From an uncultured Verrucomicrobia subdivision 3 bacterium (lineage in GTDB: Bacteria; Verrucomicrobiota; Verrucomicrobiia; Limisphaerales; UBA11358), in contig CAIWFB010000216.1 of assembly GCA_903911825.1 (NCBI GenBank), positions 1,317 to 65,316 of the forward strand: DNA of 64,000 bases, read 5' to 3'. Each line of letters starts with the position of its first letter. Within the stretch, counting starts at the first letter, position 1. Below the pieces are notes generated by a model. It was not told the origin of the DNA and did no database searches. It saw nothing but the letters and a program-made list of their open reading frames with translations. This document shows positions 9,308 through 60,898 of this stretch, in pieces. A program made the position numbers and the translations under genes.

Positions 9308-10161
9308 TTCCTTATTTCTGGAAGAAATAGCACGTTTGTTGTTCCAATAATTTCAAGCAGTGACAAAGGATTCCGGCTGGCTGGATCAACCGTGGCATAG
9401 TTATACTTCTGCCTGAAAACATCCAGGTCGGCTATTGATACTCCCAGTTTGGCATATGCTTGACTTGCAACCTCACAAAGAATTTTCGGACGACTAGAAC
9501 ATTTGCAATTATCCAAATATCCCTCCAGCCCTTTCAAAACGGGTATTTCAAACCCCTCCACATCAATTTTAATCAAATCAACTCTTTGGAGATTATGTTT
9601 CGAAAAATAATCGCTTAGTCGAATGACCGGAACTTCAAATTGTTCATTGACATCTTTTGGTGCCATAAAGTTTGGAACCATCGTGTTCCAGCCGATATTC
9701 CCCCCCTTGCTAGTGCGAATCGCGGCAGTTCCGGGATTTTCTCCCAGAGCAACTTGGTTGTAAAAAAAATGATATTCGACATTGTTTTTCGCCACAGCCA
9801 TCAAGCGCTCATACAGCCAAGGAACTGGTTCAAAGGCATGCACCTGACCTTTGGCCCCAACAAGCCCCAGTGCCACCGTGCTAATGTATCCACAATTGGC
9901 TCCAACGTCTATGAAAGTATCACCAGGCTTCAATAAGCTTTCGAGGCAGAGACATATGTCCGGCTCATAGTCGCCATAATATATCTCACTCATCATTGAT
10001 CCTAAGTCGAGATTGTATGGAAAACACACCCCATGAACCATGATGATGCCTGAGTTGGGTGGACATGGCATTATGTGGCGACGCCACCACGAAATGGATT
10101 TCCGCCAAAATAATGTTGGGTTGTTTACAAGAACAATAACTGCTTTTTTAATTTTTCTCAT
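9304..10161 (-). CDS. FkbM-family SAM-dependent methyltransferase
   Basis: FIDVGANCGYIS (SAM-binding glycine loop), …VHAFEPVP… and IDVEGFE motifs. Visibly AT-rich. Confidence 0.7.
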   Translation of the reverse strand: MRKIKKAVIVLVNNPTLFWRKSISWWRRHIMPCPPNSGIIMVHGVCFPYNLDLGSMMSEIYYGDYEPDICLCLESLLKPGDTFIDVGANCGYISTVALGLVGAKGQVHAFEPVPWLYERLMAVAKNNVEYHFFYNQVALGENPGTAAIRTSKGGNIGWNTMVPNFMAPKDVNEQFEVPVIRLSDYFSKHNLQRVDLIKIDVEGFEIPVLKGLEGYLDNCKCSSRPKILCEVASQAYAKLGVSIADLDVFRQKYNYATVDPASRNPLSLLEIIGTTNVLFLPEIRN

Positions 10162-11359
10162 ATATGGTTATTTTTTCTTGGCACAAATGGCCTAAAAAAT
10201 ACTGGCGGCAGTTCTCCTGAAAACATTTTTTGCCGATTTCGCTCGCATTTTTGCCCAGCTGGCGGCGTAAGGCTTCATCGCCCAGGAGCCGGGTCAAAGC
10301 CTTGGCCAGCGCCTCGGCATCAGGGTTATCCACCACCTCGGCGACGTCCTGGTTTTCCCGCGCCCACTGCACGGCGGACGCATAGGCTGGGCCAAATATA
10401 AAGATGGGCAAACCTGTGAGTGTGTAATCGGCTAGTTTACTTTGGAAACTCGTGATCATCCAAATCTGATCCTCCGGCCGGAAACTCAACGGCAGGAACA
10501 GCACATCGGTATTTTTTCGAAACTCCTCCAACAACTGTCCATAAGGGATCGTCGGTTTTATGTGAACATTAGGCAAGCGCAGCCCCAGCCGCGCGACCGA
10601 CTTCTCATTCTGGTGCGAATAAATCAGGATTTGACCGCCCAGAGGTTCCAGTGCCGCCGCCGCCAAGCGTAATGCGTCCGCATAGCCATCGGTGATTGTT
10701 CCCGCAAAGCCCAGCGTAAAGCTCCGGCCCGGACGTGGCTCCGGCGGTTCCGGGTAAACCGGCGCGTCGGCGGCGCGACAAGGATATAAACAGGAACCGG
10801 CCACGCCGTATTGCTCCCGGTAGAAACTTTCCATCCAAGGAGAAATGCAAAGCCGGGAGACCGCCTGCCGGTAGACGACCTGAAACCGCCGTTCGGTCCA
10901 GAACTGCAACCGCGCGGGCAGGTTGCATGAGATTGGAGGGTGGTCATGCACAATCAAATGCAACGGCAGTTTCAACGCTTGCGCCGCCAGCGCCGCCGTG
11001 TGCCAGGACCAGCCATGAGCCACAGTCAACACCGCCTCCGGGCGAAAATGTTCTGCCCGGCGAATGATTTTCCCCACCATCAAACGTGTCGTGGCTTGCC
11101 GCCAAATGGAGCTGATGCCGGCAAAGCGGGTATGGGCCAGGCGGCGTGCTCCCAATGGCAGGTGAACATAGTTCACCCCGGGCAGACGGCGCTCTGGCTT
11201 TGACACTTCGGCCAATTCGCAAATCCAGAGTTTTTCCGCCGGATACGTTTGCAAATTGCGGAACAGCAGGGTGGAGCCGGCAACCGTGTGCTCAACCGGC
11301 ACATCACCGATATATAGCAGACGGGGAACCACGACAGGTTTAGTTACTACAGCGGCCAT
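10148..11359 (-). CDS. Hypothetical protein, possibly a divergent GT-B glycosyltransferase
   Basis: 403-aa ORF in the operon with two Rossmann-like halves. I can name no diagnostic motif, so only the CDS call is firm. Confidence 0.5.
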   Translation of the reverse strand: MAAVVTKPVVVPRLLYIGDVPVEHTVAGSTLLFRNLQTYPAEKLWICELAEVSKPERRLPGVNYVHLPLGARRLAHTRFAGISSIWRQATTRLMVGKIIRRAEHFRPEAVLTVAHGWSWHTAALAAQALKLPLHLIVHDHPPISCNLPARLQFWTERRFQVVYRQAVSRLCISPWMESFYREQYGVAGSCLYPCRAADAPVYPEPPEPRPGRSFTLGFAGTITDGYADALRLAAAALEPLGGQILIYSHQNEKSVARLGLRLPNVHIKPTIPYGQLLEEFRKNTDVLFLPLSFRPEDQIWMITSFQSKLADYTLTGLPIFIFGPAYASAVQWARENQDVAEVVDNPDAEALAKALTRLLGDEALRRQLGKNASEIGKKCFQENCRQYFLGHLCQEKITIYEKN

Positions 11360-53154: not shown

Positions 53155-54042
53155 ATGAAATTCATCCGCGACATCCTCGCCGAAAAAATGGCCACCGGAA
53201 AACCCGTGGTGTCCTTCGAATTCTTTCCGCCTAAGACAGAGGAAGGGGATCGCAACCTTTTAGAGAATCAGATTCCGGCATTACTCGCCACCAAACCGGA
53301 TTTTTGCTCTGTCACCTATGGCGCGGGCGGCAGCACGCGAGAAAAGACACTGATGATTGTGGATCGCATTCAGCGGGAACATCATTTAACAGCGCTAGCC
53401 CACCTGACATGCGTCAATCATACCCAAGCGGAAGTTGGTTCACTGCTTGAAAAATTCCGCACGCTCGGCTGCAAAAATATTCTGGCACTGCGGGGCGATT
53501 CGCCGGGCGGGGGCGAATTTCAAGCCACACCCGGTGGCTTTGAATTTTCCTCGGAACTGGTAGGCTTCATTCGCCAGCAGGGCGATTTTTCAATCGGTGT
53601 GGCCGGCTTTCCCGAAGGTCATATCGCTAATAAAAATGGTAAGCTGGCTGATTGGGAGCATTTGCGGGGCAAGGTTGCAGCTGGGGCTGACTTCGTCATT
53701 ACCCAACTTTTTTTTGACAACCAAGACTATTTTGAATTCCAAGATTTTGTTAAGCAAAAACTAGGCGTATCGGTGCCGATCATTCCCGGCGTTATTGCTA
53801 TTTTGAACGCGGCGCAAATCCGGCGCTTTACGCAATTGTGTGGCTCTAAGATTCCACCCGCGCTCCACGCAAAACTCGTTCTACTGGAAAACGACGATGC
53901 CGCCGCGCTTGAATTCGGAATCGAATACGCCACCCAACAGTGTGAAGCCTTGCTGCGCGGTGGGGCACCGGGCTTGCATTTCTACACGCTCAACAAGGCG
54001 CATTCTACCGTGCAAGTCCTGAAGAATCTGGGGCTCGCTTAA
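53155..54042 (+). CDS. metF: 5,10-methylenetetrahydrofolate reductase
   Basis: Start at Met26 of the ORF. …VSFEFFPPKTEEG…SVTYGAGGSTRE…LRGD…FPEGH…. Confidence 0.9.
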   Translation: MKFIRDILAEKMATGKPVVSFEFFPPKTEEGDRNLLENQIPALLATKPDFCSVTYGAGGSTREKTLMIVDRIQREHHLTALAHLTCVNHTQAEVGSLLEKFRTLGCKNILALRGDSPGGGEFQATPGGFEFSSELVGFIRQQGDFSIGVAGFPEGHIANKNGKLADWEHLRGKVAAGADFVITQLFFDNQDYFEFQDFVKQKLGVSVPIIPGVIAILNAAQIRRFTQLCGSKIPPALHAKLVLLENDDAAALEFGIEYATQQCEALLRGGAPGLHFYTLNKAHSTVQVLKNLGLA

Positions 54043-55010
54043 AACAGATTGTTGGCCATGATGCCTAGCACGCTCAGAGGACCTTGATCCTCTAACCCAT
54101 CGGCGGCTTTGTCTAATTTTTGCAGGGAGAGTTTGGCATTTTTGTAAAATTCTTGCTCGTTCACGAGTTTGCCAAGCGTGCCTTGACCACCATTCACTTT
54201 GGAGAGGATAGAATTCAAATTGGTCATCGAAGCGGTGGCGGATGTAAAGAGCGTGTCGTCCGTAATCAGTTTCCCAATCGTGCCCTGACCCGCACTGATA
54301 TTATTGATCACACCTTTGGCGGTGGCTAAAACATCCTTAGCCGACGCGGCGGAATCTTGAAGGTTGGTGACCGTTGAAAGTGCGCTGGAATAAAGCGTGT
54401 CCTCATAGATCAGTTTCCCAATCGTGCCTTGACCAGCCGCAATCTGGCTAGAAACAGTTTTAATATTCGCAATCGTCGCGGTGAGCGGCGCGCTGTTTTG
54501 CTTCATGAAATCGGTGATTGGGCCGAGGATATTATCAATCTTATCACCCGAAAAAACTTTGGTGACGTTTTGAATCCCAGCGGCGGCATTATCTAGTTTA
54601 GCCATGATGGCACTCAGATCAGGCTGTTCACCGGTCTCTAAAATTGTTCCTTCCTCAGCCTTGGGCGCACCAGGTGAACCAAACGCCACCGCAACAAAGT
54701 TCTGACCCATCAAGCCGGTGAATTTAATGATGGCCTTGCTATCTGTTTTTACGACCGCCTCTGACTTCAATTTCATCGTCACGCTAACCTTGGTATCGGT
54801 GAGTGAAATTTTTTCGACGCGGCCGATTTCTACGCCAGCCATCTTGACACGATCGCCCACCTTCAGATCTTGCGCCGATTCAAACTGCGCGCTGATGTGG
54901 TAGCCGCGACTGAATAAATCTACCGTGCCGAGGGTTTCAACAATCGCCCAAGCCGCCATCACCGCCAGGATGACAAAGACGCCCAGTTTAGTTTCTAAGG
55001 AATTTTTCAT
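54039..55010 (-). CDS. mlaD: MlaD/MCE-family substrate-binding protein with a repeat-containing C-terminal extension
   Basis: N-terminal TM plus an MCE domain (…GDRVKMAGVEIGRVEKI…), then three GQGT(I/L)GKL(I/V)x(D/E)… repeats. Confidence 0.8.
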   Translation of the reverse strand: MKNSLETKLGVFVILAVMAAWAIVETLGTVDLFSRGYHISAQFESAQDLKVGDRVKMAGVEIGRVEKISLTDTKVSVTMKLKSEAVVKTDSKAIIKFTGLMGQNFVAVAFGSPGAPKAEEGTILETGEQPDLSAIMAKLDNAAAGIQNVTKVFSGDKIDNILGPITDFMKQNSAPLTATIANIKTVSSQIAAGQGTIGKLIYEDTLYSSALSTVTNLQDSAASAKDVLATAKGVINNISAGQGTIGKLITDDTLFTSATASMTNLNSILSKVNGGQGTLGKLVNEQEFYKNAKLSLQKLDKAADGLEDQGPLSVLGIMANNLF

Positions 55011-55022
55011 AAGCAGAACAGT

Positions 55023-55778
55023 TTAGTTTTCGCGTTTAAAATCAATGTGCAGAAATTTTTGCACGAGCGGATCATTGAATCTTTTGACTTCGTCCGGCGT
55101 GCCCACCGTTAGAATTTTACCTTCATTTATTACCGCAATCCGATCAGCCACTCCGAAGGCCAGATCGCGGTCATGAGAAACGACAATGGAGGTCACATGA
55201 ATTCGCTTTTTAAGATCCAAAATTTCCTCGCCGATGATGACAGAGGATAGCGGATCCAACTCACTCGTCGGCTCGTCATAAAGAATGACCTGCGGTTCGC
55301 TGACCAGCGCGCGCGCGATGGCCACCCGCTTCCGCATGCCGCCGGATAACTCAGAAGGCATTTTGTGAATCGCGTCCTTCAGCCCTACGTCGGCCAGTTT
55401 TTCGACCACAATTTGCTGAATCTCTTCCAGTGATTTCAGCCGGTGCTCGGTCAAATAAAGTCCCACATTTTCACCGACGGTCAACGAATTGAGCAGCGCG
55501 CCAGATTGGAACACCAGTGCCATGCGGTATTTGGAAACGATTTCCGGCGCGGTGACTTGTTCGCCATTGATAAAAATTTCGCCAGCATCCGGCTCTTCTA
55601 AGCCAATGAGGTGTTTGAGCAAAACACTTTTTCCACTACCGCTTGGCCCCATGATGACAAAAATTTCGCCCGGTTTGACTTCGAGATCGACGCCGTTGAG
55701 CACGGGCTGGCCGCCAAAACTTTTGTGCAGGCCGCGCACCACTAAGCCGACCCCGGGATGATTATTTAGGCTGCTCAT
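55023..55778 (-). CDS. mlaF: ABC transporter ATP-binding protein, MlaF-like
   Basis: Walker A GPSGSGKS, signature LSGGMRKR and Walker B ILYDEPTS. Confidence 0.85.
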   Translation of the reverse strand: MSSLNNHPGVGLVVRGLHKSFGGQPVLNGVDLEVKPGEIFVIMGPSGSGKSVLLKHLIGLEEPDAGEIFINGEQVTAPEIVSKYRMALVFQSGALLNSLTVGENVGLYLTEHRLKSLEEIQQIVVEKLADVGLKDAIHKMPSELSGGMRKRVAIARALVSEPQVILYDEPTSELDPLSSVIIGEEILDLKKRIHVTSIVVSHDRDLAFGVADRIAVINEGKILTVGTPDEVKRFNDPLVQKFLHIDFKREN

Positions 55779-55779
55779 T

Positions 55780-56517
55780 TTATTTCACAAGAAACCGGGT
55801 GAGGAGATAATCAAAAACAACGATGAGCACGATGGAATTCACCACCGCCTTGGTCACGGAACGACCAATGCCGCGGGGGCCACCAATCGTCGTCAAACCC
55901 TGATGGCAAGAAACGGTGCCGATAATTAGGGCAAAACAGAAACTTTTGAAAACTCCATGAACCACGTCTTTCAAGGCGACAATGTTTTGCAGGTCGGTAA
56001 AGAAGGCGCGCAGGGGAATCTGCATTTGGTGATTTAAGTCGGCCACGACAGCCCCGCCAAACCAGCCCACCAGAATGGAAAAAATCACCAGCAATGGCAC
56101 CGCAGCGGCAATTGCTAAAATGCGCGGCAACACCAAATAATGAATCGGGTTGATATTCATCGTGCGCAACGCATCAATTTCTTGGTAGACACGCATTGAG
56201 CCGATTTCTGCCGCCATAGCCGAACCAATCCGCCCCGCGATCAGAATGGCCATCATTACGGGGGCCAGCTCTTTGGCGATGGCAATCCCAACCACACCGC
56301 CCACGGCACTGGCCAGGCTACGCTCCACCAGCACCGGGCCCGTCTGTAAGGCAATGACGGCACCAATAAAAAATGAAAGCACGCAAACCATGAGCAAGCT
56401 GGCGTTGCCAATCTCAAAAAACTGCTCATAGACTTTTTGTCGCTGCCGCCACGTTTGCGGGAGAGCCAGCAACGTGCGCCAAAACAAAAGAATTACTTCA
56501 CCAATGCTTTCAAACAT
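55780..56517 (-). CDS. mlaE: ABC transporter permease, MlaE-like
   Basis: …AKELAPVMMAILIAGRIGSAMAAEIGSMRVYQEIDALRTMNINP…. Confidence 0.85.
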   Translation of the reverse strand: MFESIGEVILLFWRTLLALPQTWRQRQKVYEQFFEIGNASLLMVCVLSFFIGAVIALQTGPVLVERSLASAVGGVVGIAIAKELAPVMMAILIAGRIGSAMAAEIGSMRVYQEIDALRTMNINPIHYLVLPRILAIAAAVPLLVIFSILVGWFGGAVVADLNHQMQIPLRAFFTDLQNIVALKDVVHGVFKSFCFALIIGTVSCHQGLTTIGGPRGIGRSVTKAVVNSIVLIVVFDYLLTRFLVK

Positions 56518-56519
56518 AT

Positions 56520-58001
56520 TTATTTAGCCGACGTTGAGGGAAAGTTGACGTAGAACCAGCGCGACCGCCGCGTTTCCTTATCCGATTGATACTGGAAAAG
56601 TCCGAACAGGAGCGAGAATTTTTTATGGTCCGGGGCCGTTTCGCGCCGATAAAGATTCCAGAACAAAGACTGACTGGCCGATTGGGTTTTCAAATTTGTC
56701 TCGGCTCGCCAGAGCGACCACAGCGGCGACCAGTTTCGCTCGATACCGCGATTGTTTGGCACTGCAGGCTCTAGCGGGGCGAGGATTTGCAAGCGTTCGT
56801 TGCCATTGAAGTCCCGGTGCCAGGTGAACAATGGCCAAACATCTATGCGCTTTTTGGCAGCGCTGGTCTGCGTATTTTTTTCCTCGGAATTAACGAAAAG
56901 AAACAGCGCGAAACGCGCGGTATGTTGATCTAGGGGATCGGAATGCGTGCGGCGATAGGTGTAAAGCGGCCAGACATACGAATCGCTCTGTTTCACCAAA
57001 TTGTGAGACTGACTAAACAAAGGCCAAATGCGCGAAGTATGCTTACCTTCGCCGCGGGTAAAAATCACGAACGGATAAGGGCCTTCCCATTCGTGGTATT
57101 TCTTTTCACGGTCATCAATCCAAGCAAAGAACGGCCAGATCACTGAAGTATAATCGCGTTGCGGCGACCGCGAATAAGCATAAAAAGGGAACGTGGCGCG
57201 GAACTTTTCAGGGTTCTCGGTGCCGATGCCCGTATCTTGCTTGAGGTGCAGCGGCCAGAGAAAAAATCTTTTGTCATGGCCAGCCACCAAACTAATGTCG
57301 CCAAAACCGTTGGTGGCCTGAGTAACCTCCTTATGTTCGTGACCGACAATGGGCCATACCTGCCAACCATTCAAACCCTCGCCGTGCCGGACATGGACAA
57401 AGGGATAAACATAATTATCGGTGATGACATCACGTTTACGCGTTTCGCTGTAAATGGGAAACATGACAAAATCCATCTCATCGTGGAAAAGACGGTTGTT
57501 GAGGTGGCCGTAAAAGGGAAAAACCGCAGTATAATTTAGCTTCGGCTCGGCGGCACGCTGTTGAAAATAGAAGGGAAACACAGTGAAGCGTTTCACCTGG
57601 GTTTCATCTGGCTCTTGCCCGCCCGCAAAACTTAATAGTTGAAATAGTTGCCAGCGATTTTCTAATCCGTAATGGATATGAGTCAAAAGCGGGTAAAAAT
57701 AATCATCTTCGTGCGCCGGGATGGCGGTGTCACGATTGCAGGAATAAAACGGTGGCCAGGCCCAGGTGGTGTTTGATTCGAGATGTTCGGAATAAAAAAA
57801 TGGCCCCGCCGCTTCGGTGCGATAACCCTCTTCTAAGGTCAGCTTAAACCGCTCAAACACGAATCCGTAGGCAGAATCCGCAGCCCAAAGTTTTCCCTGC
57901 ACGCACCCAAAAATCGCCGCAACAATCACCAAACAAAGCAAATGCAGAAATTTCTGCTTTTGCATTTTTGACTTCGTTATCGTTATTGGGTATCTAATCA
58001 T
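56520..58001 (-). CDS. Secreted/lipoprotein-like repeat protein with ~15 aromatic-Pro motifs, unknown family
   Basis: Signal peptide (MQKQKFLHLLCLVIVAAIFGC, probable start 57965). Recurrent (V/I/F)(W/F/Y)P(F/L/I)(F/Y) motifs. 2-nt gap to mlaE. Confidence 0.8.
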   Translation of the reverse strand: MIRYPITITKSKMQKQKFLHLLCLVIVAAIFGCVQGKLWAADSAYGFVFERFKLTLEEGYRTEAAGPFFYSEHLESNTTWAWPPFYSCNRDTAIPAHEDDYFYPLLTHIHYGLENRWQLFQLLSFAGGQEPDETQVKRFTVFPFYFQQRAAEPKLNYTAVFPFYGHLNNRLFHDEMDFVMFPIYSETRKRDVITDNYVYPFVHVRHGEGLNGWQVWPIVGHEHKEVTQATNGFGDISLVAGHDKRFFLWPLHLKQDTGIGTENPEKFRATFPFYAYSRSPQRDYTSVIWPFFAWIDDREKKYHEWEGPYPFVIFTRGEGKHTSRIWPLFSQSHNLVKQSDSYVWPLYTYRRTHSDPLDQHTARFALFLFVNSEEKNTQTSAAKKRIDVWPLFTWHRDFNGNERLQILAPLEPAVPNNRGIERNWSPLWSLWRAETNLKTQSASQSLFWNLYRRETAPDHKKFSLLFGLFQYQSDKETRRSRWFYVNFPSTSAK

Positions 58002-58081: not shown

Positions 58082-60898
58082 TTACCTCGGTTCCTCCTGA
58101 CCTGGTGTCGACCTTGTGTCGGCACTGGGTTTTTTATTTAGCGGTGTTCGCCACTGTCCAATTAGCCCCAGCAAAGCTGGCACAAAAGTTAATCCTGCTA
58201 GCATACAGGTTGCAATCCCAACTGACATGATAATGCCCAGACTGTGAATTCCCTGATGTTGCGCCAAAATCAGACTGCCGAAACCCGCGATGGCCGTCAA
58301 TCCCGACACCAACACCGCCTTGCCGGTGCTGCGAGAGAGAATACTCGGAGTCCGCTCTTCTGCATAGCGATTCAGAATGTGAATCCCATTTGTCACACCA
58401 ATGCCGATGACCAATGGTAAGGTCATGATGTTCGCCGGATTGAATGGCACGCCCAACGCGCCCATCAAACCCGTCAGCCAAAGCGTGCCTAGGCCGACAG
58501 GTATCAACGCCAAAATGACCGCCACCAGACTACGAAAGTGAAAGAGCACCATCACCGCAATTGCCACTAAGGAATACCAAGCGGCCACGATATAGCTATC
58601 CTTGAGCAGGGTAGTGTATTCCAGTAATTGCACCGGTGTGCCCGTGATGATGGGTTTGTTTTCGTCTTGCGGATCCAGTTTAGTGCGCAGGGCGGTGATA
58701 AATTCCTGCTGTTCATCCCGCTGCCAGACATCTTTTTTGGGATAAATCTGCAACAGAAATTTCCCATGCACCCCCACAAACCGATTTTTTAACGCCGGTG
58801 GTAAATCTTCAATCCGCAAAGGCGCTCGATCATCTTGCAGTTGCAACACCTGAAAAGTCGTCCGCAAATCCTCAAACAAAGCCTGCTGATACTGGCCAAG
58901 TTTTTCGGAACGCTCTTCGATGGCCAACGTATCGCCCGCGAGCATTGCCCGGCGAAAATCTTGAATCGTCAGCTGCAACGACGCCAATTGGCGGGCTAAT
59001 TCAGGCTCACTATCGCCAACCTCCACCCGCGCCTGACCAAGATAACCAGCAAAAGAATAGAGCGTCCGGCTCAACGAATAAATATCGACCGCGTGCATAT
59101 CCGGCGGGCTGAACTGTAATGGGGCCACAATTTCTTTGATGCCTGCAATGAGCCGTAATTTTTCGCCTTGTTCCTGATGTAGAAAGCCGGCGATCGATTG
59201 CACGTCGGCTACGACGTTAGTGAGGGTGCGAATTTCTTTTTCCAAACGGACCGCTTCGTCCAAATCATCGGCCACCACCGCCCCGAATAACACGGATTTG
59301 TCAGCCGAGGTAATCAGCTTCTTTTCGTAGATCACCGCCGGCAAACCGCTGCTCTGCATGTTCAAGAGATTATAATCAAACACCACCCGGCGTGATTCAT
59401 AGGCGGCTATGACGCTGATGACCAAAATAATCAGCGTCACCAGCACCGGACGTTGTAGCCAATAATTTTCAATCCGCGCCCGCTTGTTGGCGGCGCTCAC
59501 CTGATGATCGATGACGTTTTGTTTTCCGCGCAACAGCAACACCGGCAAAATCGTCATCATCGGAATGAAACAAATCATCAAGCCGCCGCCACAGATGACC
59601 CCCATTTCCCGGATGCCTTTGAAATCCGTGAACGCCATTGCCGCAAACGCCCCCGCCGTCGTGAGCGCCCCCGTGAAGATTCCCTGCCCCGTGAAAACCA
59701 TCGCTTTGGTGAGCGCCTCGTGCTCGGTTTTGCCGTGGCGCAATTCCTCCTCGTAACGCGTGATCAGATGCACGCCAAAATCAATCGCCAGCCCAATCAA
59801 CATTGGCAAAAACGTGATCGTCAAAATATTCAGGTGCCCCACCGTAAGCGTGGCAAAGGCGAATGTGTAGGCCAGTCCGAACAGGAGACAAATGATCGCC
59901 TTGATGGGGCGTCCCGTTTCGTTGTAGCCGTAGATAAAAATGAGGGCGACCAACACGAGCGAGACCACGCCCGCCAGAATCGTATCGGTTTGCGACTGCG
60001 CCATTTCATCCAACTCCAGCACCGGTTCACCGGTGAGCCCGGCATTGACGCCCGAGACTTCTTTTTTGGTTTCTGCGATCAGTTGGCGGATTCGTTCTAC
60101 GGCGGCTTCATTCAAATCGGCGCGCGGCGCATGGGCGGTAGCGAGGAAAATTTTTCCGTGGTTAAAGGTGATATACGTTTCGGCCACCGCCTCATCGCCC
60201 GCATTGAATAAAGCCGTTACGCCCGGCGATGGCGGCGACCCGGCGCGCCCCAAACTTTCGCGCGCTTGCTGTAAAATCCGCTCCAAGGCGGGCAATGATT
60301 TGACCAGCGATTCCGTCTGAGCATTCGTCTCACGAGGAGCCGTGCGGAACTGCGTGTTGACCTGTTCAAAAAAGGAAATCAGGTTCGTGGTCTGGGAAAA
60401 TTTTTGGATGAAGGGGAGATCGTCTTTCAGCGTGTCGCGCAATCCGACCAAATCCTTTTCCGGCACGAATAACAACGCTTTTTTACCCATCATCGGCAGG
60501 TCGCCCTTAAAGAAAACGTCCTTGAAAAGGTGGATTGAGGCCGTTTCCTTGCTGTCTGGTTTCACGGGCGCCACGATGAGCGCCGCTTCCATGCGCACCC
60601 CTAAGCGCTCCACAAACTGCCGGTTTTTTTCGACGTCCTCGCTTTCAACCACGACGACCAGATCATCTTGCTGCGTGAATTCCTTTTGAAACTCGAGGTA
60701 GTTGTGGTGATACCGCTTATTCCCGCCGACGAGATTATTGCGGTCAGTATCAAATTCCAAAAAACCTACCGTTACCGCAATCGCCGCGAAGAACAGCACC
60801 ACTTGCGGCCAGAAAAACCACCGAGGATAGCGGATCACGGCGGCGGCTAGTCGGGCCAGCAGCCGTCCAAGAAAACCGTCTGCGCTCAACGCCTTCAT
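58082..60898 (-). CDS. MMPL/RND-superfamily transporter (HpnN-like architecture)
   Basis: 938 aa in two halves, each with a large extracytoplasmic domain followed by about 6 TM helices. …LIGLAIDFGVHL… and …GIGVTNGIHIL…. Confidence 0.8.
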   Translation of the reverse strand: MKALSADGFLGRLLARLAAAVIRYPRWFFWPQVVLFFAAIAVTVGFLEFDTDRNNLVGGNKRYHHNYLEFQKEFTQQDDLVVVVESEDVEKNRQFVERLGVRMEAALIVAPVKPDSKETASIHLFKDVFFKGDLPMMGKKALLFVPEKDLVGLRDTLKDDLPFIQKFSQTTNLISFFEQVNTQFRTAPRETNAQTESLVKSLPALERILQQARESLGRAGSPPSPGVTALFNAGDEAVAETYITFNHGKIFLATAHAPRADLNEAAVERIRQLIAETKKEVSGVNAGLTGEPVLELDEMAQSQTDTILAGVVSLVLVALIFIYGYNETGRPIKAIICLLFGLAYTFAFATLTVGHLNILTITFLPMLIGLAIDFGVHLITRYEEELRHGKTEHEALTKAMVFTGQGIFTGALTTAGAFAAMAFTDFKGIREMGVICGGGLMICFIPMMTILPVLLLRGKQNVIDHQVSAANKRARIENYWLQRPVLVTLIILVISVIAAYESRRVVFDYNLLNMQSSGLPAVIYEKKLITSADKSVLFGAVVADDLDEAVRLEKEIRTLTNVVADVQSIAGFLHQEQGEKLRLIAGIKEIVAPLQFSPPDMHAVDIYSLSRTLYSFAGYLGQARVEVGDSEPELARQLASLQLTIQDFRRAMLAGDTLAIEERSEKLGQYQQALFEDLRTTFQVLQLQDDRAPLRIEDLPPALKNRFVGVHGKFLLQIYPKKDVWQRDEQQEFITALRTKLDPQDENKPIITGTPVQLLEYTTLLKDSYIVAAWYSLVAIAVMVLFHFRSLVAVILALIPVGLGTLWLTGLMGALGVPFNPANIMTLPLVIGIGVTNGIHILNRYAEERTPSILSRSTGKAVLVSGLTAIAGFGSLILAQHQGIHSLGIIMSVGIATCMLAGLTFVPALLGLIGQWRTPLNKKPSADTRSTPGQEEPR

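Follow-up and report, generated by a model that had tools for sequence, protein, structure and literature searches.

An exported aromatic-proline hairpin-repeat protein encoded beside mlaEFD in Verrucomicrobiota, and its possible role in a needle-type MCE lipid transporter

The stretch of DNA considered here (the window; 64,000 nucleotides (nt), positions 1,317 to 65,316 of contig CAIWFB010000216.1, assembly GCA_903911825.1) comes from an uncultured Verrucomicrobia subdivision 3 bacterium, and carries a tight minus-strand run of five genes in the order MMPL, REP, mlaE, mlaF, mlaD. REP is the label we use for P0001, a 493-amino-acid (aa) aromatic-Pro hairpin-repeat protein encoded by the second of these genes. 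Its stop codon (56520-56522) lies 2 nt from the mlaE ATG at 56517, a distance already given in an initial annotation of this DNA and borne out by the coordinates, and its ATG lies 80 nt from the MMPL stop. A consensus scan found no terminator-like site in either the MMPL-REP or the REP-mlaE gap. The gene lpxA is located upstream of the run, the features of which are as follows.

58082-60898, minus strand: HpnN-like MMPL/RND lipid exporter, upstream of REP (PF03176; TIGR03480 at 524 bits, below cut-off)
56520-58001, minus strand: REP (P0001), 493 aa, predicted to be exported (open reading frame (ORF), ATG start, translation)
57882-58001, minus strand: signal peptide, REP residues 1-40 (Lys-rich n-region with ITIT, 17-residue hydrophobic core, likely cleavage between LWA and AD)
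56784-57875, minus strand: main hairpin array, REP residues 43-406, about 38 short strands (DSSP of models, motif statistics, invariant prolines)
56706-56792, minus strand: conserved non-repeat insert, REP residues 404-432, LQILAPLEPAVPNNRGIERNWSPLWSLWR, two short helices (invariant columns, modelled helices)
56529-56711, minus strand: C-terminal hairpins, REP residues 431-491, seven strands, lacking a terminal aromatic signal (AlphaFold2 model, homologue C-termini)
55780-56517, minus strand: mlaE permease (PF02405, 240 bits)
55023-55778, minus strand: mlaF ABC ATPase (PF00005)
54039-55010, minus strand: mlaD, 323 aa, needle type (PF02470 at residues 35-111)
54042-54083, minus strand: hydrophobic C-terminal tail of MlaD, ending in GPLSVLGIMANNLF, specific to REP-linked MlaD

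The coupling of REP to mlaE proposed in the initial annotation extends well beyond this genome. The 80 best genome matches to REP are from Limisphaerales (Verrucomicrobia subdivision 3), and in all 80 of these loci the order MMPL, REP, mlaE, mlaF, mlaD is maintained on a single strand as far as the contigs reach. A more distant sample comprised 20 genomes of other Verrucomicrobiota families, in which REP is 21-28% identical to the window protein. Here REP is directly upstream of mlaE in 16 genomes, 15 of which have the full same-strand mlaE-mlaF-mlaD set, with mlaF and mlaD nearby in the sixteenth, such that co-location of the kind expected for a component of an MlaFED/MCE complex is seen in 80/80 close and 16/20 distant loci. 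An MMPL gene, by contrast, adjoins REP in 80/80 Limisphaerales loci and in none of the 20 distant genomes, and clustering of all ORFs in the distant loci recovered no other widely shared neighbour of REP. Given that REP-mlaEFD is retained in distant genomes and MMPL is not, the conserved unit is REP-mlaEFD, and the MMPL link is a Limisphaerales feature; the earlier suggestion of the MMPL protein as a partner consequently does not correspond to a conserved link. Seven of the 20 distant genomes (including loci L112 and L129) share a gene pair upstream of REP, which by N-terminal sequence alone resembles glmM and a glmU-like acetyltransferase. With glmM/glmU-like genes or lpxA upstream, REP-mlaEFD therefore tends to sit among envelope-precursor genes.

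The repetitive nature of REP is strongly supported. REP contains 14 copies of the motif [WFY]-P-[FLIVM], 13 of which follow the signal peptide, compared to a chance expectation of 1.4 +/- 1.1 and a maximum of 7 in 5000 composition-preserving shuffles. Degenerate copies (WPPFY, WSPLW, GPFFY) add two or three to the 13 strict ones, which reproduces the 15-16 copies counted previously, although their spacing is mainly 17-22 residues, or twice that, rather than the 20-40 residues first claimed. When 15 units from each of 65 homologues are pooled, the motif unit reads hydrophobic (88%), aromatic (75%), Pro (98%), hydrophobic (99%), aromatic (70%), with polar or charged flanks and Gly, Asp, Glu or Asn at 9-10 residues on either side. 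Moreover, ten motif prolines are the sole invariant columns of the 65-sequence alignment, which spans 22-76% identity. Among close homologues the best-conserved block is a run of invariant columns at L404-R432, the consensus of which is kept in the 65-sequence alignment and in which helices are modelled at 418-428; this insert (404-432) is a candidate functional site.

On the basis of its N-terminus, REP is predicted to be exported. The signal peptide is modelled by AlphaFold2 as a helix at residues 14-34, with low confidence, and the ITIT of its n-region (residues 6-9; 57975-57986, minus strand) precedes the hydrophobic core and is kept in most Limisphaerales homologues. The initial annotation described a secreted protein with a lipobox-like AIFGC; export and the presence of AIFGC in the signal peptide both stand, but the lipobox is no family trait, as a lipobox-like Cys occurs in just 13 of 167 full-length homologues, most of which possess an Ala-x-Ala type site. 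Lipoprotein status as a property of the family is therefore not supported. We read REP as a probable Sec/signal peptidase I substrate in most lineages, which may be a lipoprotein in a few, with the present copy ambiguous in this respect.

AlphaFold2 modelling of REP on a 65-row alignment returned an all-beta structure with a mean pLDDT of 93.3 and a pTM of 0.81, and residues 43-250 modelled alone gave values of 96.8 and 0.82. The model consists of about 46 strands of 5-8 residues in one unbroken antiparallel up-and-down meander (about 23 hairpins), in agreement with the beta-hairpin unit previously suggested for the repeat. Each repeat is predicted to form one hairpin, comprising a strand, a two-residue turn of G/D/N type, a second strand and a 3-4-residue aromatic-Pro loop, and because this order recurs in every repeat the aromatic-Pro loops would all lie on one edge of the ribbon and the tight turns on the other. 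On both faces, the hydrophobic residues keep to within about 4 positions of the proline, the remainder of each strand being charged or polar. As modelled, one edge of the ribbon thus bears a continuous aromatic, proline and hydrophobic stripe, and the rest is polar.

Neither a single-sequence nor a profile search of REP against the PDB produced a match, and no global PDB structural match to the model was recovered. Foldseek searches of the PDB with the full model listed tandem propellers (at E about 1e-5), LRP modules and teneurin, all of which we dismissed as global matches given their TM-scores of 0.10-0.15 and root-mean-square deviations (rmsd) above 20 A; the TM-scores also lend no support to the beta-propeller that had been suggested. 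Tandem propellers are absent from the top 50 of the exhaustive VIA search, and the N-terminal half of REP has no Foldseek match at E<=0.001. Teneurin scores Z 6.1 at an rmsd of 26 A in VIA, and REP has no Pfam match for the RHS/YD repeat. The best VIA scores instead go to single-layer sheets.

Full model (C-terminal third) versus MORN radial-spoke proteins: Z 10.5-10.8, 141-149 residues, rmsd 4.3-5.0 A
Full model (C-terminal third) versus CPAP G-box: Z 10.7, 148 residues, rmsd 7.3 A
Full model (C-terminal third) versus OspA: Z 9.8, 145 residues, rmsd 4.7 A
N-terminal half versus CPAP G-box: Z 10.7, 167 residues, rmsd 11.6 A
N-terminal half versus OspA: Z 9.8, 109 residues, rmsd 3.2 A
N-terminal half versus TbMORN1: Z 9.1, 139 residues, rmsd 7.1 A
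N-terminal half versus MORN4: Z 8.2, 96 residues, rmsd 2.8 A

MORN repeats, the CPAP/SAS-4 G-box and OspA share with REP a local geometry of consecutive hairpins in one antiparallel sheet (Z 8-10.8, about 100-150 residues). However, these are eukaryotic cytoskeletal proteins or spirochaete surface antigens with no sequence kinship to REP, which is 2-3 times longer and more curved; furthermore, the REP loop is aromatic-Pro and the MORN motif Gly-rich, and the MORN repeat PF02493 has no Pfam match in REP (E<=1) or in the 65 homologues (E<=0.1). Over long stretches the walls of beta-barrels superpose on the model better than flat sheets do (FecA, 179 residues at 5.8 A; MtrB, 193 at 6.4 A; Tom40, 143 at 4.9 A over REP residues 158-329; compared to 167 residues at 11.6 A for the G-box), which suggests that the predicted ribbon is strongly curved, with about one turn per 20-26 strands. 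We infer that the chain as a whole may coil into an open spiral or a ring-like shape instead of lying as a flat strip of 200 A.

The MlaD encoded with REP has distinctive features of its own. Beyond its MCE domain (residues 35-111, PF02470), the protein extends C-terminally for about 200 residues, in which three GQGT(I/L)GKL...(Y/F) repeats occur. These internal repeats (AGQGTIGKLIYEDTLY, AGQGTIGKLITDDTLF and GGQGTLGKLVNEQEFY) occupy residues ~190-295, and their glycines G193/G195/G198, G241/G243/G246 and G277/G280 hardly vary among 39 REP-linked MlaD. The best PDB match of the MlaD profile is Mce1B of the mycobacterial Mce1 needle (8fed_B, positions 7-256, E 8e-25), and the profile also matches designed six-helix coiled-coil barrels, which indicates a needle-type and probably periplasm-spanning MCE protein; such an architecture has been described for most long MlaD (PMC10665443; PMC12436622). 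In addition, all 91 of the REP-linked MlaD listed end in a hydrophobic tail, which reads GPLSVIGIMANNLF here and TSPITTFSSIFFGAF in distant classes. This tail is found in 0/20 MCE genes of REP-less mlaEF operons and in 0/2 other MCE proteins of this genome, all of which end in charged tails. Its association with REP linkage makes the tail the best candidate for a point of contact with REP or with the outer membrane.

In our view, at a rough probability of 0.55, a needle-type MlaF-MlaE-MlaD transporter has REP as its fourth component, which is exported by Sec, is either soluble or peripherally bound to a membrane, and acts at the outer-membrane end of the transporter. Under this proposal the MlaD hexamer would span the periplasm as a hydrophobic tube. 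At the distal, outer-membrane end of this tube REP would dock onto or cover the hydrophobic tip of MlaD, insert its aromatic-proline rim into the outer membrane's inner leaflet, or do both, such that lipids could then pass between the MlaD tube and the outer membrane. We favour this reading because of the conserved adjacency of REP and mlaEFD, the predicted export and fold of REP, its hydrophobic edge and polar body, the needle-type MlaD, and a MlaD tail that tracks REP. It also draws on the failure to find MlaC or a PqiC-like gene in this genome and on the sporadic occurrence of MlaA in the class (8/61 genomes, not tracking REP). Precedent is provided by the four-gene Mla-type operon MpcEFDA of Brucella, whose outer-membrane lipoprotein, MpcA, has been co-purified with MpcEFD (PMC12436622), and the PVC-group MlaD lack the fused outer-membrane barrel seen in Veillonella (PMC10665443).

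Several observations weigh against this proposal. MlaE is present in 284 of 301 genomes in an even sample of Verrucomicrobiota and a REP match in 157, so that Mla-type systems evidently work without REP, and in 4 of the 20 distant genomes the best match to REP lies away from the mla genes. The four exceptions have a REP copy of about 480 aa elsewhere, and some also carry giant ORFs of 1300-1500 aa composed of REP-like repeats; nothing coherent was detected by Pfam among the neighbours of REP copies away from mla. A homologue of MlaA is present elsewhere in the window genome, so an outer-membrane partner is not strictly missing. Moreover, it is gene context that makes REP a predicted partner of MlaD, MlaE and MlaF, and the REP-linked MlaD are orthologues, so that the correlation with the tail amounts to one trait and not to independent events. 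The global shape of REP (spiral, ring or open ribbon) is drawn solely from alignment statistics. Prediction of a complex between REP 42-493 and MlaD 30-322 from alignments gave an ipSAE of 0.00 in two runs and speaks neither for nor against binding; MlaD was entered as a monomer, though MCE proteins are hexameric.

An extension of the proposal, which we hold to be quite unlikely, is that REP itself is a new lipid conduit, in which an open beta-spiral or ring of 23 hairpins, with six MlaD tails plugging in, would use its aromatic-proline stripe to carry the MlaD channel on as far as the inner leaflet of the outer membrane, or into it. If true, MCE tubes and AsmA/Lpt beta-grooves would be joined by a third type of structure able to bridge the periplasm. 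An unlikely explanation would make REP a periplasmic lipid carrier or bridge in its own right, functionally analogous to MlaC or to grooves of the LptA/AsmA type, with the stripe shielding acyl chains between MlaD and the outer membrane. Such a role would suit the failure to find MlaC in this genome, a hydrophobic stripe that runs the whole length of the ribbon, the 46-strand meander, which could by simple arithmetic span roughly 100-200 A, and the presence of LptC and LptD among weak structural matches (Z about 6). However, the hydrophobic residues do not line a concave groove but sit along one edge, on either face, the faces of the strands carry much charge, and the linked MlaD already looks like a periplasm-spanning tube. 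It is highly improbable, finally, that REP is an integral outer-membrane beta-barrel serving as a channel for the Mla system. Its all-beta meander topology and the long stretches that superpose on the walls of FecA, MtrB and Tom40 would be compatible with a barrel, as the initial annotation suggested, yet the strands are 5-8 residues long and, away from the Pro loop, have many Arg, Lys, Glu and Asp residues on either face, compared to the ~9 or more residues with a hydrophobic face expected of classical transmembrane strands. There is likewise no terminal aromatic signal (6/167 homologues end in F or Y, and Lys is the commonest final residue), and the Z of 6-7 obtained against barrels falls within the stated background of the search tool.

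Two further explanations would loosen the tie between REP and lipid transfer by MlaD. REP might serve the upstream HpnN-like MMPL exporter, for instance as an outer-membrane-side receiver of hopanoids, making its link to mlaEFD secondary. While the position of MMPL directly upstream of REP in 80/80 Limisphaerales loci and a squalene-hopene cyclase in the genome would accord with this, no MMPL gene is found beside REP in the 20 distant genomes, 15-16 of which retain mlaEFD, and the gap to MMPL is 80 nt compared to 2 nt to mlaE; consequently, we give the idea little credence. It seems similarly improbable to us that REP is a scaffold of the choline-binding or MORN-like kind, which would bind cell wall, polysaccharide or head groups and organise the envelope locally with no direct part in lipid transfer. 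Repeats of aromatic hairpins, each about 20 residues long, typically serve as ligand-binding modules, the best structural matches of REP are to MORN, G-box and OspA sheets, and genes resembling glmM and glmU (by N-terminal sequences alone) lie upstream in some loci, as lpxA does here. Against this stand the tight phylum-wide coupling specifically to mlaEFD and the lack of any Pfam repeat family matching REP.

Comparison with characterised systems helps to place REP as a proposed fourth component of MlaEFD. By analogy of role, its closest functional counterparts are PqiC and Brucella MpcA, though it matches none of the relevant family models (PqiC-like PF03886, MlaA PF04333 and MlaC PF05494; Pfam, E<=1). 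Like REP, PqiC and MpcA (of E. coli PqiABC and Brucella MpcEFDA, respectively) are an extra exported component in an MCE operon with a long helical needle, and as lipoproteins they have a role at the outer-membrane end of needle-type MCE systems, such as we propose for REP with a different fold. The differences are nevertheless considerable, since PqiC/MpcA-type proteins are small, alpha/beta and assembled in an octameric ring and their gene comes last in the operon, whereas REP is an all-beta hairpin repeat of about 450 aa, usually lacks a lipid anchor, and is encoded first. MlaA (VacJ) and MlaC of the proteobacterial Mla system are likewise partners of MlaFED outside the cytoplasm and handle lipid on its way between MCE ring and outer membrane, as REP may do, but their folds and sequences are unrelated to it. 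Systems with a long MlaD of the Veillonella type resemble the present one in their minimal MlaEFD core, trans-envelope MlaD and lack of an MlaC shuttle. The fused barrel is missing from PVC-group MlaD; here a separate secreted beta protein (REP) is encoded next to a MlaD with a short hydrophobic tail at its end.

We regard the REP system as an MCE lipid transporter whose accessory protein is of a structurally new kind. Two aspects are new here, namely the specificity of the MlaD tail for REP linkage and the restriction of the MMPL link to one lineage. It has been stated as an open question (PMC10665443) by what means MlaEFD/MCE transporters reach the outer membrane where, as in many bacteria, MlaA and MlaC are lacking, and REP offers a concrete, testable candidate for the missing outer-membrane link of MlaEFD across a phylum of environmentally abundant bacteria. 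Its architecture is confidently predicted, with no global counterpart among solved structures, and the family, with more than 1000 sequence clusters annotated just as hypothetical protein, merits a name in domain databases.

With regard to other lipid genes, three MCE genes and three mlaE matches were counted in the genome (91.5% complete, 5.4% contamination), and neither MlaC (PF05494) nor a PqiC-like protein (PF03886) was found in it at this completeness. The MlaA (VacJ; PF04333) homologue mentioned above (L131, G000:C163:18422-20414) scores 140 bits and is cut off by the contig end. The squalene-hopene cyclase is also located elsewhere (L135, G000:C353), and fits an HpnN-like exporter handling hopanoids; the MMPL exporter itself falls below the HpnN equivalog cut-offs and also matches the model of the sterol transporter BstA, at 276 bits.

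As the initial annotation had anticipated, no named family can be assigned to REP, which has no match in Pfam (E<=1) or NCBIfam. At 90% identity the family falls into more than 3159 clusters, each either unnamed or labelled "hypothetical protein", and at 50% identity it has 1158 representatives (E<=0.001); none of the 120 clusters listed has a precomputed Pfam domain, the ESM Atlas neighbours are all unnamed verrucomicrobial clusters, and a literature search found no published description. A weak lead is provided by PF03640 (Lipoprotein_15, a secreted repeat of unknown function), which matches 2 of the 65 homologues (best E 5.7e-6) and may reflect either a remote repeat relationship or chance. 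Nine loci from metagenome-assembled genomes (L008, L028, L036, L043, L048, L060, L062, L076, L079) are labelled Bifidobacteriaceae, Limnocylindrales, Methylomirabilota or Sulfopaludibacter; they carry the full Limisphaerales synteny from lpxA to MMPL-REP-mlaEFD, with a REP identity of 53-62%, and are probably mislabelled or contaminated bins. Lastly, giant ORFs of 1150-1525 aa with several REP-like stretches occur in other Verrucomicrobiota (G292:C49:11470-13680; G007:C8:186251-188524; G160:C23:30331-33003; G026:C119:2136-4553), and the first of these, in G292, divergently adjoins mlaE (9813-10442).

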